Source: a virus. Taken from it: DNA of 38,088 nt. Shown one piece after another: positions 1 to 5,592 of this stretch (positions within the stretch are counted from its first letter, which is position 1; each line of letters starts with the position of its first letter). The notes beneath the pieces were generated by a model. It saw only the letters and a list, made by a program, of their open reading frames with translations. It had not been told where the DNA came from and did no database searches. The position numbers were made by a program, and so were the translations under genes. The stretch lies in UHGV virus genome UHGV-0049967; one strand, given 5' to 3'.

Positions 1-49
1 TGACGGGTAAAAAGTGGATAAAATAATTTTACCCACCGGATTTTTACCC

Positions 50-1207
50 ATGCTCACCGTTAAGCAGATTGAAGCAGCAAAGCCGAAAGAAAAACCATAC
101 CGCCTTCTCGATGGTAATGGCCTGTACCTTTATGTCCCTGTATCCGGGAAAAAGGTATGGCAGCTTCGCTACAAGATTGACGGTAAGGAGAAAATCCTGA
201 CTGTCGGAAAATATCCGCTTATGACTTTGCAGGAGGCAAGGGATAAAGCATGGACTGCGAGGAAAGACATCTCGGTTGGCATCGATCCGGTAAAAGCGAA
301 AAAGGCTTCGTCTAACAACAATTCCTTTAGCGCCATTTACAAGGAATGGTACGAGCACAAGAAGCAAGTCTGGTCTGTAGGGTATGCGACTGAACTTGCC
401 AAAATGTTTGATGACGACATTTTACCCATCATCGGCGGCCTTGAGATTCAGGATATTGAGCCGATGCAACTGCTGGAAGTAATCCGCAGATTCGAAGATC
501 GCGGTGCAATGGAGCGAGCCAACAAAGCCCGCAGAAGATGCGGCGAGGTTTTCCGTTACGCTATTGTCACTGGTAGGGCTAAATATAACCCGGCACCTGA
601 CCTTGCTGACGCCATGAAGGGATACCGCAAGAAGAACTTCCCGTTTTTACCTGCAGACCAGATACCGGCATTTAACAAAGCACTGGCAACATTTTCAGGA
701 AGCATCGTATCGCTCATTGCGACTAAAGTTTTGCGCTACACAGCCCTCAGAACGAAAGAGCTTCGTTCTATGCTATGGAAGAACGTCGATTTTGAAAACA
801 GGATTATCACCATCGACGCCAGTGTGATGAAGGGACGCAAAATTCATGTGGTTCCTATGTCAGACCAGGTAGTTGAACTTCTCACTACGCTAAGCTCCAT
901 CACTAAACCAGTATCAGAGTTTGTTTTTGCCGGACGCAACGATAAGAAGAAGCCAATCTGCGAGAACGCGGTATTGCTTGTGATCAAACGAATCGGCTAT
1001 GAGGGTCTGGAAAGCGGTCACGGATTCAGGCATGAATTCAGCACGATTATGAACGAGCACGAATGGCCTGCTGATGCTATTGAAGTGCAACTGGCACATG
1101 CCAACGTCGGATCTGTGCGCGGGATTTACAACCATGCTCAGTATCTCGATAAGCGCAGAGAAATGATGCAGTGGTGGGCGGATTGGCTTGATGAAAAGGT
1201 GGAGTGA
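50..1207 (+). CDS. int: Tyrosine integrase, P4-like family with N-terminal arm-binding domain
   Basis: N-terminus MLTVKQIEAAKP...YRLLDGNGLYLYV...W.LRY is the typical P4/CP4-57-type integrase start; C-terminal catalytic region with R...H..R...Y-type motifs (HGFRHEFST, ...YNHAQY). ATG at 50 preferred over the GTG at 14. Confidence 0.85.
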   Translation: MLTVKQIEAAKPKEKPYRLLDGNGLYLYVPVSGKKVWQLRYKIDGKEKILTVGKYPLMTLQEARDKAWTARKDISVGIDPVKAKKASSNNNSFSAIYKEWYEHKKQVWSVGYATELAKMFDDDILPIIGGLEIQDIEPMQLLEVIRRFEDRGAMERANKARRRCGEVFRYAIVTGRAKYNPAPDLADAMKGYRKKNFPFLPADQIPAFNKALATFSGSIVSLIATKVLRYTALRTKELRSMLWKNVDFENRIITIDASVMKGRKIHVVPMSDQVVELLTTLSSITKPVSEFVFAGRNDKKKPICENAVLLVIKRIGYEGLESGHGFRHEFSTIMNEHEWPADAIEVQLAHANVGSVRGIYNHAQYLDKRREMMQWWADWLDEKVE

Positions 1208-1400: not shown

Positions 1401-3788
1401 TCATATTTTATTTAAGTTATTCTTTTTTAATGTCATCTCTAGTTCTTCGATACGTCTTTCTATATTATCAATTCTCTCCCAGCATTGCTGAATTGATTTA
1501 ACAATAGGTGGGATGAATTCATCGTAACCAAGTGAGTAAACATCATCCCCACCATTTTTCAAGTGATGCTGTAGCCCACCGAACTCAACACCTAATTTCT
1601 CACACAGTTTCAATACGTCCTGTGCAATAAACCAGTGATGGTATCGTTGACGTTTTTTACTGCCGTCAGGAGTTTTCTGCACTACTTCAAGATATTTTTC
1701 TTCGACATTCTCAATAGCTGATATAGTAATTCCATCAACATCTCGTTCTACTTTTTTTGGTACAATTCTTGTTTTTTCAATAACATCAATATAATCATCA
1801 CGCATATCCCAGCGACCATCGACAGGGCGAAGTCCAAGGATAAATTCAATCCCCAGCAAAGTATCTCGGATATCTGTTTTATCACGCGCATCAGATCTGT
1901 TTTGCACAGTTCCATATACATATGTCGTTGTGGAAGAATTGCCAAGCTGCACCTGATTACTTCCAGACACCCTTGCATCATTGCCAACAGTTGTTGTGTT
2001 GGTAAGTGATGATGTGCTTTCCCCTGATTGAGTTAATCTACCTGAATTATGTCCAATAGCCGTGTTTAATGCGCCGGTTGTATTTGTGACAAGAGAGCCA
2101 GACCCAATTGCAACGTTACTGCTTCCCGATGTTGTTCCTTTTAATGCCTGCTGTCCAACCGCAACATTATTATCACCCGTTGCTGCTATAAGTGCCATGT
2201 GACCAATAGAAACGGTAAATGAACCTAGCGTTTGAGTTTCACCGCATGCACCATAACCAATTACAACAACATTATCTGTAATTGTTGACTCGGTTGCCGC
2301 TCCAGCACCAATAACAACGCTTTCATTCCCTGCAAGATTCTTGCGCATTGCGAACATTCCAATGCCAACATTATCATGCCCAGTCCCTGTACCTGCTGCC
2401 TCCGCAGCACCAAGACAGTTTCCCGCTCTGTAGCCAACCATGGTGTTATTTGAACCAATAGAGAAGTCTCCGGCAAAAGAGCCTACGTATACACTATTAG
2501 ACTGTGAGTAATCTCCAGGATTTCCATTCGCCCGATATCCTACTGCAACTGTATAAATAGTATCTGGAGCCTCAGCCATGGCCTCAAAGCCAACTCCAAC
2601 GTTATATCTACCGCCCTTAACTTTTTCTCCTGCACCAAGTCCGAAGAATGAGTTATAGCTCCCGGTTGTTAGCCACTCGCCAGCAACAGAACCTACAGCA
2701 GTGTTTCCTGTTCCAGTACATCGATACAAAGTCAGGAAGCCAACTCCGGTATTATTATTTCCTGAAATATTACTCATCAATGATTTTGACCCAATGGCAG
2801 TATTGTTAACACCATCGGTCAGATCCTGTAACGCTCGCGGGCCAAATGCTGTATTATCGTAACCCTTTGGCGCTGTTGTTGGATCTGGTAACTCCGGGGT
2901 TAGTTTTTCACCACCACCACCATTGGCACAAAGATTGTAAGATCGAATAAATTCAGCCACTGGCCCAAGTTTCAGATAACCATTGGCAATATTAATTCTG
3001 ACACTTACATTAACTGAGCTACCAGGAGCTTCTATTGTCCTGTCATCAACCCAGGTAAAACTCTGTGGTATCCCGTCATAAGTTAATGTCACATCTCCTT
3101 TATCATTATAATTATAGAACAATGTATAACGCTCATTTATAGATTCAGAACCTGATGATCCTCCTCTCCTCCACCACTCTGCATTATCAAAAATAAGTAA
3201 TCCTGGACCATAATATTTTCCCTTCTGACCCAAGATCATAGGAGTTGATAATCGCCACCTTCCCTCTGGAACATATACATCGATACCAGTTCTTTCTGCG
3301 TCTTTAAACGATTCATCACATAATACAACACCACCTTCAACAGCACCAAATCCACGAACATCACCATTATCTCTCCATCGAGCCATTTGCAACTCAGGAT
3401 ACTTCTTAGCGCCATCAATGTCTTCTAATTGGTTCCGCAGCTGATCAGGATCATACTTCAGTACATTAGGAAAATAGAACTGCTGAGCACCGTAAGCATC
3501 ATATACAGCCATAGAATGGCCTTGCACAGTTACGAACTTAGCAATCTGTCCGTTATATACAGGGTAACCAGCAGCGTTAAGGATGATTGGTTGCGAAACA
3601 GGAATGTGAGAACCATCTTCACTCTCTACATAAACCGGAATCTGGTTTGCTGTATTTACCGGGTCAGTGTCAATTTTACCGATATAAATTTTGCCATTAG
3701 CTACAGCTTTAAAAGAGCGAGCCATAGTGAAGAGTTGCGATGGCATCCCAATTACAACATTTGGAGTTATATTAGGCATATTAGTCAT
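1401..3788 (-). CDS. Tailspike/tail fibre: P22 gp9-like head-binding N-terminus, Gly/Asn-rich beta-helix repeat region, C-terminal intramolecular chaperone (peptidase S74-like) domain
   Basis: N-terminus [47 protein letters not shown]...[13 protein letters not shown] matches the P22 tailspike head-binding domain; central degenerate repeats (NTAIG, NVAVG, VGYRAG); C-terminal ...[11 protein letters not shown]... resembles the self-cleaving chaperone domain of endosialidase-type fibres. Start placed at MTNMPN (AGGA precedes); the ORF-track N-terminal extension to 3872 is considered unlikely. Confidence 0.85.
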
Positions 3789-4123
3789 CCTGTTTGAAAA
3801 CTTAGAAATTGAATAAAAAGGAATGACTGTAGACAAAGATGCAAGTGTTTTGAAAAATAATCTTCTATTCATTTTAAATCATGCAACACAAAAAAACGAT
3901 TATTTTACAACGAGCAAGAATCTTGATCAACAGACATATATTTTAATTGCTGAATACGTCACTTAAAAATGACAAGTACTACTTTTATTCCTATCGTCCA
4001 TGATTTTAATTTTCAAATATTATTAAATAACAATTCCTATTTATAATATCTGTCATTTAATTTGCTCCAGATACAAGTAATCGCTGCAGCATGACTGCAG
4101 TAATACATAATCAATCATACAAC

Positions 4124-4140
4124 AAGACCACCGTGGTCTT
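4124..4140. promoter_or_regulatory. 17-bp perfect palindrome AAGACCACCGTGGTCTT, probable Mnt operator
   Basis: Perfect inverted repeat with CCAC(C)GTGG core, located in the divergent mnt/tailspike intergenic region, the position of Omnt in P22 immI. Confidence 0.5.
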
Positions 4141-4202
4141 ATTGAGGATGCAACCAGCAGATAATAAGATGCCGATCCACTCACAAGAGCGAGGCATCAA
4201 GA

Positions 4203-4454
4203 ATGGGAAGAGATGACCCGCAATTTAATCTGCGGCTACCTTACGAATTAAAGGAAAAACTAAAACAGCGAGCCAAATCAAATGGCCGCTCTCTTAATTC
4301 AGAATTAGTTCAGATAGTGACTGATGCTGTATCAAAGCCATCCAAAATTTCAGGCTATCGAGACGATGCGGAACGCATCGCTGATGAGCAGTCAGAGCTT
4401 GTTAAGAAGATGGTGTTTGATACGCTGAAGGATTTGTACAAAAAACCCACCTGA
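4203..4454 (+). CDS. mnt: Mnt repressor (ribbon-helix-helix, Arc/MetJ superfamily)
   Basis: MGRDDPQFNLRLPYELKEKLKQRAKSNGRSLNSELVQIV...GYRDDAERIADEQSELVKKMVFDTLKDLYKK is nearly colinear with P22 Mnt as I remember it. Confidence 0.9.
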   Translation: MGRDDPQFNLRLPYELKEKLKQRAKSNGRSLNSELVQIVTDAVSKPSKISGYRDDAERIADEQSELVKKMVFDTLKDLYKKPT

Positions 4455-4470
4455 AGGTGGGTTAATTTTT
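4441..4470 (+). terminator. Rho-independent terminator after mnt
   Basis: ACCCACC-TGAA-GGTGGGT hairpin flanked by an A-run and TAATTTTT; the mnt stop codon lies in the loop. Confidence 0.6.
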
Positions 4471-4553
4471 GCATTTACCTGGGCCATATTGACTACTTAT
4501 AAAATGAGATCAATATTTAATCGCCCAATAACGGGTGTATGTTGAGGTATATC

Positions 4554-4733
4554 ATGGCGAAAAAACCAGGTGAAAACACAGGAAAAAACGGCGGAATATA
4601 CCAAGAAGTTGGCCCACGCGGCGGTAAGAAAGACAATTTTGCAACCGTCAAGGACAACGAAAGGCTTCCACCAACAACAAAGCCAGGTCATGGCTGGGTA
4701 TTGGATAAGCGAACTCCAGACAGCAAAAAGTAA
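4554..4733 (+). CDS. Small basic protein (59 aa), unknown function; possibly YjzC-like small protein family
   Basis: GAGGT SD 5 nt upstream of ATG; sequence MAKKPGENTGKNGGIYQEVGPRGG...GHGWVLDKR. Family assignment is from memory only. Confidence 0.5.
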   Translation: MAKKPGENTGKNGGIYQEVGPRGGKKDNFATVKDNERLPPTTKPGHGWVLDKRTPDSKK

Positions 4734-4738
4734 TAATC

Positions 4739-4761
4739 AAGCCGGGTCACTCCGGCTTTTT
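4739..4761. terminator. Shared hairpin between convergent genes (bidirectional terminator candidate)
   Basis: AAGCCGG-GTCACT-CCGGCTT followed by TTTTT on the plus strand; the stop codon of the minus-strand HExxH gene sits in the loop. Confidence 0.5.
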
Positions 4762-5112
4762 GATATGTCGCTCGCAGAACTCAACAAGCCTGCTCATTAA
4801 GTAGCAGTAAGTCTCGTTGGCTCTTCCTGGTTCAACATCAACACCTACCCTTGAGCAGATATCGAATGCCATGTGAGCGCACTCATGGGCAATAGTAGAT
4901 AGTTTGCCATTGAACACGCCTATCACATGCAAAACACCATTCTCGCTACTCATTGTATGAGACGCTCCGTTGGCGTCCGAGTCATGCACGTCAACGCCAA
5001 GTTTTTGATGCAGGCGTTGCCATTCTGGAAAGTCTCTACAAAACACAATTGTACCGCTCTCAAAGAGCGGAACGAGCATCTTTGGTACGTTTCCAATGTT
5101 AACTTTTTTCAT
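4747..5112 (-). CDS. 121-aa HExxH (zincin-like) protein of unknown function
   Basis: HECAHMAFD motif with a downstream Glu (EPGRANE) suggests a minimal gluzincin; AGGA SD 4 nt before ATG; low-GC context. Confidence 0.6.
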   Translation of the reverse strand: MKKVNIGNVPKMLVPLFESGTIVFCRDFPEWQRLHQKLGVDVHDSDANGASHTMSSENGVLHVIGVFNGKLSTIAHECAHMAFDICSRVGVDVEPGRANETYCYLMSRLVEFCERHIKKPE

Positions 5113-5142
5113 GGTATCCTGCGCAAAACTAAGGAGGTTGGT

Positions 5143-5592
5143 GTGAGTGAAAAATTATCAGTTGAGATTTACAGGGATGCAAAAAAATTGATTAAAAAGG
5201 CATTGCTGATTTCCCTATCTTTGTTAGCCATTGCCATTGTTTATTTTGTGGCAGACAAAATCTATACAGAACAAAAAAATAGCAAAAAAAATGCTGAGCT
5301 GATTATGCGCGCAGAAAATGTTGTCAAGGGTAAATCACCCATGGTATTCAACAGAACATTCCTTGGCGAAAGCTCCTCTATTTCTGTTTGGTTTATTAAT
5401 GATTCAGATGGGCATATTCTTGTAGAAAAAAACGGTGAAAAATCATTGTTTTCATCAAGAGAATCCGTATACGGTGGCATCAATGCATACCATCAAGCCG
5501 GAAAGGCATGTGAAACCCTGTCTTTTTCTATGACTTCAGGTTTTGTGATATCTGTTTCTTGCGATTTTGATGATTATTACACTAAAAAATAG
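5143..5592 (+). CDS. N-terminally anchored membrane protein (about 149 aa), candidate superinfection-exclusion protein
   Basis: AAGGAGG SD 5 nt before the GTG start; one predicted TM helix (ALLISLSLLAIAIVYFVADKIY) followed by a roughly 110-aa domain; occupies the position of sieA in P22; about 35 percent GC by eye. Confidence 0.55.
   Translation: MSEKLSVEIYRDAKKLIKKALLISLSLLAIAIVYFVADKIYTEQKNSKKNAELIMRAENVVKGKSPMVFNRTFLGESSSISVWFINDSDGHILVEKNGEKSLFSSRESVYGGINAYHQAGKACETLSFSMTSGFVISVSCDFDDYYTKK

Follow-up and report, generated by a model that had tools for sequence, protein, structure and literature searches.

The window analysed here, the whole 38,088 nucleotides of UHGV virus genome UHGV-0049967, carries a P22-like (Lederbergvirus-type) prophage of an Escherichia coli host lineage, in reversed orientation relative to the P22 map. 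Its repressor gene mnt lies with a palindromic operator between the gene-16 homologue and the tailspike gene, and the arc and antirepressor (ant) genes that belong to the immI region of P22 are missing. Read from its sequence, this region is a new E. coli example of the mnt-only "ant moron" of the phage L and ST64T type. The explanation preferred here, to which we give a probability of roughly 0.8, is that the region is the remnant of a deletion within a complete immI, that the Mnt unit still works, and that Mnt does not control the tailspike.

Phages L, ST64T and ST104 are already known to have mnt-only arrangements (PMC2629481; bioRxiv 10.1101/2020.10.05.325894), and the variable region was named "ant moron" by Villafane et al. 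in 2008 (PMC2629481). An immI remnant of this kind next to the tailspike gene is classical, known from phage L genetics and from the comparative genomics of ST64T, ST104 and epsilon34. Evidence for a function of the lone mnt, and an unreported tailspike extension with a candidate promoter of its own, go slightly beyond this literature.

A single deletion would have removed arc, sar, ant and the ant terminator from the ancestral immI, bringing the operator's left edge up to the short stretch that in P22 comes after the ant terminator, the spacer before gene 9. The working unit left behind would consist of the tetrameric Mnt repressor, the 17-bp operator and the mnt promoter. Tailspike expression would proceed by late read-through as in P22, perhaps also from a promoter in the AT-rich leader of the tailspike gene.

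The mnt gene and its operator

The mnt gene (4203..4454, + strand) encodes an 83-amino-acid ribbon-helix-helix repressor with a C-terminal tetramerisation domain. Its product matches the Pfam families Arc (2.8e-22) and Repressor_Mnt (2.2e-18) and the PDB entries 1MNT (2.8e-34) and 1QEY, the tetramerisation domain (3e-12), so that both domains are intact, and it is 76% identical to P22 Mnt. The Shine-Dalgarno sequence GAGG (4191..4194, +) stands 8 nt before the ATG, and relatives keep GTGAGG or GCGAGG there. The stop codon is covered by a bidirectional terminator-like hairpin (4444..4463, both strands, found by a terminator scan) with an 8-bp stem, five GC pairs and T runs on either side; P22 has the same hairpin.

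Mnt is preceded by a perfect 17-bp palindrome, AAGACCACCGTGGTCTT (AAGACCAC-C-GTGGTCTT, 4124..4140), with mnt 62 bp downstream. The palindrome occurs once in the window at up to three mismatches, and shuffled sequences are expected to give 0.10 matches; the counting tool scores the same site on both strands. The annotated P22 operator, Omnt, is AGGTCCACCGTGGACCT, and the window palindrome is its homologue in position and sequence: the operator centre is 69 bp from the mnt ATG in the window and 66 bp in P22, and ATTGAG follows in both. The identification of a P22-type Mnt with a perfect palindrome upstream, made in the initial annotation, is borne out by these matches, and the palindrome is taken as the putative Mnt operator.

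The reduction of immI that had been proposed on the same occasion is also confirmed. Searches of the window by tblastn with P22 Arc, P22 Ant and the second type of Ant, that of E. coli E4, gave no homologue beyond the cross-match of Arc to Mnt. The sar RNA (Rfam RF00262) is absent from 3300..5300 at expectation values (E) up to 1, the P22 control scoring 96 bits; the same Rfam search returned no RNA family, only sub-threshold matches to the terminator hairpin. No match to sieA was found in the window. Hence arc, ant and sar are gone, and mnt and the operator homologue are retained.

The same arrangement recurs among relatives. In a megablast search of GenBank phages, ST160, SE1, Gally, vB_EcoP-720R6 and JEP4 proved to have mnt immediately beside the tailspike gene, arc and ant being absent. 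A 57-bp query comprising the operator and the mnt promoter (Pmnt) matches 31 P22-like GenBank phages at 87-98% identity, including MW013502 (phage L), AY052766 (ST64T) and AB102868 (ST104) at 87.7% and ST160 and SE1 at 89.5%. Of 76 IMG/VR contigs containing AGACCACNGTGGTCTTATTG, 69 have it beside the tailspike gene without arc or ant; seven have arc, and six of these also ant. Where Mnt is at least 92% identical to that of the window, the locus is in every case without arc and ant. A search for relatives that used an alignment of seven Mnt sequences yielded the close relatives obtained with the single protein and no others, and a scan of genome contigs for AGACCACNGTGGTCTTATTG gave only two matches, in unrelated metagenome-assembled genomes and at chance level.

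Promoters at the operator

Promoters were predicted with a simple sigma-70 weight matrix, for which P22 served as the positive control. The P22-pbi record annotates Omnt, Pmnt (TTGAGA-17-TATCAT) and the ant promoter Pant (TTGACA-17-TATATT), and the matrix ranks Pant (16.3) and Pmnt (12.5) first on their respective strands.

The top plus-strand match in the window is the predicted Pmnt (4142..4170, +), TTGAGG (4142-4147)-17-TAAGAT (4165-4170), with a score of 9.8; it coincides in position with the Pmnt annotated in P22. Its -35 hexamer starts one base past the operator, and its predicted start near 4177 would place the operator at about -53 to -37, a geometry as in P22. Homologous hexamers are present in ST160, Gally, JEP4 and diverged loci. 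Mnt stimulates Pmnt in vitro, and in the window we infer that it binds the operator and modulates its own promoter.

The leftward side is different. According to the initial annotation, a Pant-like promoter, if retained, would read directly into the tailspike gene and put its expression, or something else, under Mnt control in lysogens. The geometry would permit such control, as the operator lies between mnt and the tailspike gene, 50-90 bp from the tailspike start in most relatives, and the P22 operator overlaps the Pant start. However, the positions equivalent to Pant are occupied in the window by TCGGCA-17-TGCATC, whose -10 hexamer matches the consensus at two of six positions and is without the key A2 and T6. 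The best leftward score within 4055..4215 is 5.5, below the mean best score of 7.8 for shuffled sequences and equalled by 86% of them. A fair -10 hexamer, TATGAT (4119..4114, -), does lie immediately beside the operator on its left, but it would have to be paired with ATAAGA as the -35, for a combined score of 4.7, and TATGAT is not conserved in Gally or ST160. Weak leftward candidates in ST160, Gally and JEP4 stand at differing positions. The matrix itself is capable of finding such promoters, since in addition to P22 Pant it detects the TTGACA-17 Pant-like promoters that are retained, with scores of 12.0-12.3, in two IMG/VR loci with complete immI of the same operator class (L063 and L010). 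Moreover, about 345 bp, with a vestigial start codon and a mini open reading frame (ORF), separate the operator from the tailspike start in the window.

The operator therefore appears to overlap no recognisable promoter aimed at the tailspike, and because the tailspike-directed promoter is gone, the tailspike is probably not under Mnt control. Repression of the tailspike by Mnt in lysogens is accordingly regarded as very unlikely. The comparison with P22 that had been suggested thus has a divided outcome: positional homologues of Omnt and Pmnt are present, but the Pant hexamers are not kept, and the sequence does not support the proposed promoter reading into the tailspike.

Anatomy of the spacer between mnt and the tailspike gene

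The spacer is 423 bp long and composite, consisting of an ordinary mnt-gene 9 spacer, a vestigial gene-9 start and an AT-rich leader. It had been taken for a 415-bp AT-rich divergent region bordered by a tailspike start at 3788. Mnt and the tailspike gene are indeed divergent, but the start annotated by NCBI in near-identical prophages is 3779, and only ~3780..4050 is AT-rich, with a GC content of 22-30%; the operator-proximal part, 4050..4200, has 39-47%.

The right-hand ~150 bp (4055..4202) are the usual spacer between mnt and gene 9, as it occurs in ST160 and Gally. At its end stands a vestigial gene-9 start (4046..4068, -), made up of the Shine-Dalgarno sequence GGAG (4068..4065) and ATGACAGATAT (4056..4046), both identical to those at which the tailspike genes of ST160, Gally and P22 actually start; in these phages the mnt ATG and the tailspike ATG are 136-149 bp apart. 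In the window it opens a 16-codon mini-ORF, MTDIINRNCYLIIFEN (4056..4006, -). Homology to gene 9 ends after 11 nt both in the window and in JEP4, and is followed by the AT-rich segment and then by a different tailspike gene.

The AT-rich leader (~275 bp, 3780..4045, -) goes with the tailspike type. It is common to phage JEP4 (87-89% identity) and E. coli prophages. The complete P22-type immI of E. coli E4 is followed, past ant and its terminator, by the vestigial start and the AT-rich segment, with the same joint. Because the segment has this place in that strain, it belongs to the tailspike cassette and is no relic of immI. Its interpretation as degraded arc or ant was rejected, as it gives no tblastn signal and coexists with intact immI in E4. 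A small ORF within it (3823..3966, +) was likewise rejected as coding, since a stop codon interrupts it in JEP4 and E4 and it matches no family. The operator is ~345 bp from the tailspike start in the window, against ~55-85 bp in the mnt-only phages of the L and ST64T type, because a tailspike cassette with its own leader replaced gene 9.

A conserved hairpin with a 7-bp stem and a 3-nt loop (4082..4102, -) precedes the Shine-Dalgarno sequence of the ancestral gene 9 by ~25 nt. It occupies the same place in P22 (locus L004, ~2440..2460) and in loci with full immI or lone mnt. It is present in all P22-like loci examined, with a stem of 7-11 bp in which sequence changes preserve the pairing (CCGTAGC/GCTGCGG in one case, CTGCAGT/GCTGCAG in another). 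Since no T run follows, the hairpin is not a classical terminator. The full spacer is present in 20 of 5,426 E. coli complete genomes, and part of it in 641 of them.

Selection on mnt and operator classes

The window prophage (E. coli type) and ST160 (Salmonella type) have the deletion junction in common. Between their mnt genes, synonymous divergence (dS) is 0.54 and nonsynonymous divergence (dN) 0.05, a dN/dS of 0.09; in deeper pairs synonymous sites are saturated, with a proportion of nonsynonymous differences (pN) of ~0.2. The operator arms of the two are identical at 16/16 positions although mnt synonymous sites differ at 39%; by our own arithmetic from that difference, such identity would arise by chance with a probability of ~4e-4. 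The 11 bp left of the operator arms are identical at 2/11 positions, and the Pmnt region at 24/29.

The centre base of the palindrome is C, T, G or A across relatives, and the palindrome is perfect within each of several specificity classes. At least four matched pairs of Mnt N-terminus and operator are distinguished, all with the operator at the same position relative to Pmnt. P22 has the N-terminus RDDPHFNFRM and the operator AGGTCCAC; the window has RDDPQFNLRL and AGACCAC; and JEP4 has YDEAQFHLRL and TACCG-AAA-CGGTA. A further class, with ELETQFHLRL (MEELETQFHLRLP) and AGTACCA-NNN-TGGTACT, was sampled by protein similarity alone, using a 64%-identical Mnt as the query, and all its members are without arc and ant. 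Arg2, His6, Asn8 and Arg10 of Mnt have roles in base contacts. PMC3413123 cites Knight and Sauer (1989) for the finding that Arc and Mnt owe their specificity to N-terminal residues.

Loci L083 and L324 have common flanks (…tagtgttta … atgccgatcc…) and different operator classes, which suggests that the operator and the Mnt N-terminus may be exchanged together as a cassette.

These observations bear on the proposal that a degrading immI has left behind mnt and its palindrome as a non-functional relic. Whether this is so was left open in the genome paper on phage L, which named a new function and a decaying remnant as the two options (bioRxiv 10.1101/2020.10.05.325894), and single-base defects or a half-decayed arm in the operators of some relatives speak for the latter. 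Decay is, however, difficult to reconcile with a dN/dS of 0.09 at dS 0.54 and with saturated synonymous sites beside the low pN of deeper pairs. Nor would it account for two intact Mnt domains, for operator arms unchanged between E. coli and Salmonella lineages that have a deletion junction in common, or for a palindrome that stays perfect in each specificity class while its centre varies. We hold the relic proposal to be extremely improbable. Because of purifying selection, invariant operator arms and matched classes of Mnt N-terminus and operator, the data favour a function for the lone mnt, which does not seem to be decaying.

Possible roles of the orphan repressor

In P22 lysogens, Mnt represses the antirepressor promoter. 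A repressor that regulated only itself would not be selectable. One role for the orphan Mnt, put forward tentatively and with well short of even confidence, is repression in trans: on phages that enter the cell or already reside in it, Mnt would act on antirepressor promoters bearing the same class of operator. Such a role agrees with the immunity-like diversification of Mnt and operator, as well as with the complete immI modules of the AGACCAC class present in seven viral contigs. Control of a small downstream gene is conceivable. Our best guess ranks trans-repression highest among the outputs of Mnt, followed by the tuning of late read-through.

In such tuning, Mnt at the operator or convergent transcription from Pmnt would modulate late read-through into the tailspike gene, and the tailspike dosage in lytic growth would be the selected trait. 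By gene order, late transcripts cross mnt (in antisense) and the operator before reaching the tailspike gene, and an effect of this kind was hinted at by Villafane et al. (PMC2629481). In the operator-selected IMG/VR set, moreover, the operator adjoins the tailspike gene in all 69 of the lone-mnt contigs. This adjacency is nevertheless explained by descent, because the moron always lies between genes 16 and 9. P22-like phages without any mnt have the tailspike gene directly after gene 16, a P22 mnt-ant deletion is viable as reported (PMC11016777), and dosage tuning leaves the matched diversification of operator and Mnt N-terminus unexplained. It is on balance an unlikely explanation, if a less remote one than repression of the tailspike from a surviving Pant.

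Several points weigh against the preferred explanation, one of them against trans-repression in particular. For the latter, neither the 50,697 GenBank phages nor the complete genomes of E. coli that were searched yielded an antirepressor under an operator of the AGACCAC class. The arc/ant modules of this class occur only in the seven metagenomic or isolate viral contigs, and the two read in detail (L063 and L214) are not P22-like. A few relatives have damaged operators (GTGGTTT, AGACCGC and AGTATCAC), and for this reason the constraint on the operator is not absolute. The Pmnt score of 9.8 is attained by 8% of shuffled sequences and is marginal when taken alone, and the sigma-70 matrix is blind to promoters of unusual type.

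Searches of GenBank phages and E. coli complete genomes for Pant-arc-ant arrangements returned other operator classes only, in Erwinia phage Midgardsormr38 and in E. coli EC556. In the EC556 prophage (locus L355, 2640..2760) arc and ant are intact, the operator is TAGTAC-C-GTACTA (TAGTACCGTACTA) and the Mnt N-terminus VARNDPQFNVRMP; on this sequence evidence it represents a further putative immI specificity class in E. coli.

Complete mnt-operator-arc-ant modules are located at 2100..3710 in L063 and at 4830..6360 in L214, in the latter between tail genes. L063 and L214 are considered not P22-like because a tape-measure gene is close by. As an AGACCAC-class module occurs in such contigs, the immI cassette appears to move between phage types. 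A megablast search of phages with the L214 immI region gave no match.

The orphan repressor lends itself to the study of "immunity without an antirepressor".

Leader and N-terminal extension of the tailspike gene

The tailspike gene in its short form (1401..3779, -), which has the NCBI start of E. coli ZH063, is transcribed divergently from mnt and encodes a tailspike with a Pfam Head_binding domain (1.9e-62) and a weak Peptidase_S74 match at the C-terminus. AGGA is found 8 nt before its ATG at 3779, and the longest ORF reaches 3872. The additional 31 in-frame codons (3780..3872, -) encode a signal-peptide-like extension (MNRRLFFK...). It is open and of equal length in 13 distinct close relatives, starting with ATG or GTG.

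Extensions of 31-32 codons are found in two diverged lineages as well (MNRRSFFKSIASF... and MKRRTLLKSLLGL...). One is present in a 73-75%-identical E. coli/E. albertii lineage without any mnt (MNRRSFFKSIASFVALTP…), and one in the tailspike of Salmonella Kentucky (MKRRTLLKSLLGLTSLLPVKFAAS…), whose long-form ATG has GAAGGA in front of it. The NCBI annotation takes the long form in Salmonella Kentucky and the short one in E. coli, and the E. coli versions have no Shine-Dalgarno sequence at the upstream ATG. In other loci the extension lies at 1539..1631 (L356 and L357), 3001..3096 (L358) and 3001..3093 (L359); it is absent in ~230 other tailspike loci.

A candidate sigma-70 promoter for the tailspike gene, TTGATC-17-TAAAAT (3902..3930, -), is found ~190 bp from the operator and ends 29 nt before the long-form ATG. 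Its matrix score of 13.6 is attained by 5% of shuffled sequences. Both hexamers are invariant in 13 distinct relatives, and the spacer between them varies. The Salmonella lineage has TTGATA-17-CATGAT 31 nt before the long-form ATG, and the third lineage has a weak site only.

Judged by eye only, the extensions have a twin-arginine-like RRx[FL][FL]K motif (RRLFFK, RRSFFK or RRTLLK at residues 3-8) and a small-x-small site (SIS, SLS or AAS) at about residues 21-24; the core between is moderately hydrophobic, with a mean Kyte-Doolittle value of 1.2-1.4. Searches of the whole N-terminus and of the peptides alone gave no Pfam-A or NCBIfam match to a signal peptide at E up to 10, models of the twin-arginine (Tat) type included, although weak Tat-model matches were possibly lost to HMMER filters. 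The single profile match to one extension peptide was to an unrelated OppA model. A Tat reading of the extension is therefore unsupported by the Tat profile models. A literature search found no paper on a phage tailspike with such a signal.

A bolder proposal, which we consider doubtful, has two separate parts. Lysogens would make the tailspike independently of Mnt, from its own promoter, and the long isoform would be exported to the periplasm and cut or modify host surface polysaccharide. Separately, the orphan Mnt would be a stand-alone "anti-antirepressor" immunity gene, guarding the prophage from being induced by ant-carrying phages of the same operator class. If this were true, the exported long tailspike would be a receptor-destroying form of lysogenic conversion, a virion enzyme doubling as an exported factor, and the tailspike would be expressed in lysogens as the broader idea of the initial annotation had it, though not via Mnt.

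Neighbouring genes

The integrase gene (14..1207, +) lies at the beginning of the window, before the tailspike gene. The mnt unit between the gene-16 homologue and the tailspike gene includes small ORFs matching phrog_3202 and phrog_1365. The first is an orf59a-like gene of 59 amino acids (4554..4733, +; phrog_3202, 7.3e-31) with a weak Pfam YjzC match. A promoter-like site of its own, TTGACT-17-AATATT (4489..4517), lies before it and a terminator-like hairpin (4739..4758) behind it. The second (4747..5112, -; phrog_1365, 1.7e-39) encodes 121 amino acids, is similar to orf64 of SE1 and ST160, and occupies the place of sieA in P22. Its product carries an HExxH motif (HECAH) and may for this reason be a small metallopeptidase-like protein. 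The genes for the injection proteins 16 and 20 come after it.

Comparison with known systems

Outside the phages, the tailspike extension may be compared with WceF of Pantoea stewartii, a Tat-exported trimeric glycosidase with a tailspike-like fold (PMC7949094). In both cases a tailspike-like protein would follow a signal peptide of twin-arginine type, ~28 residues long in WceF. WceF is, however, encoded by a chromosomal gene of an exopolysaccharide cluster and is without a head-binding domain, whereas the extension in the window belongs to a bona fide virion tailspike and is not matched by Tat profile models.

The immI region of P22 has the order mnt, Omnt, Pmnt/Pant, Oarc, arc, sar, ant and t_ant. 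The window resembles it in a Mnt with both domains, in the length, symmetry and position of the operator, in the coordinates of the Pmnt hexamers relative to the operator, in the terminator hairpin after mnt and in the orf59a-like gene. It differs in the absence of arc, ant, sar, the ant terminator and sieA and in the loss of the Pant hexamers. Within the operator half-site two positions are different (AGACCAC in place of GGTCCAC), and with them residue 6 of the DNA-binding strand, where His is replaced by Gln.

The full immI regions of the AGACCAC class (IMG/VR loci L010, L063, L074, L214, L226 and L227) are similar to the window in the operator arms followed by TATTG, in the N-terminal strand RDDPQFNLR of Mnt and in a Pmnt-like promoter at the same position. 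Unlike the window, they have kept arc, ant and Pant-like promoters of the TTGACA-17 type, and the C-termini of their Mnt proteins differ.

The mnt-only phages L, ST64T, ST104, SE1 and ST160 provide the closest parallel in arrangement. As in the window, their mnt lies between gene 16 and the tailspike gene, without arc, ant or sar, and they have in common with it the operator class AAGACCAC-N-GTGGTCTT, the Pmnt region, the deletion junction and the hairpin before the gene-9 Shine-Dalgarno sequence. The window is distinguished from them by its E. coli host lineage and by a tailspike cassette with a ~275-bp AT-rich leader, which replaces gene 9 from its 12th nucleotide.

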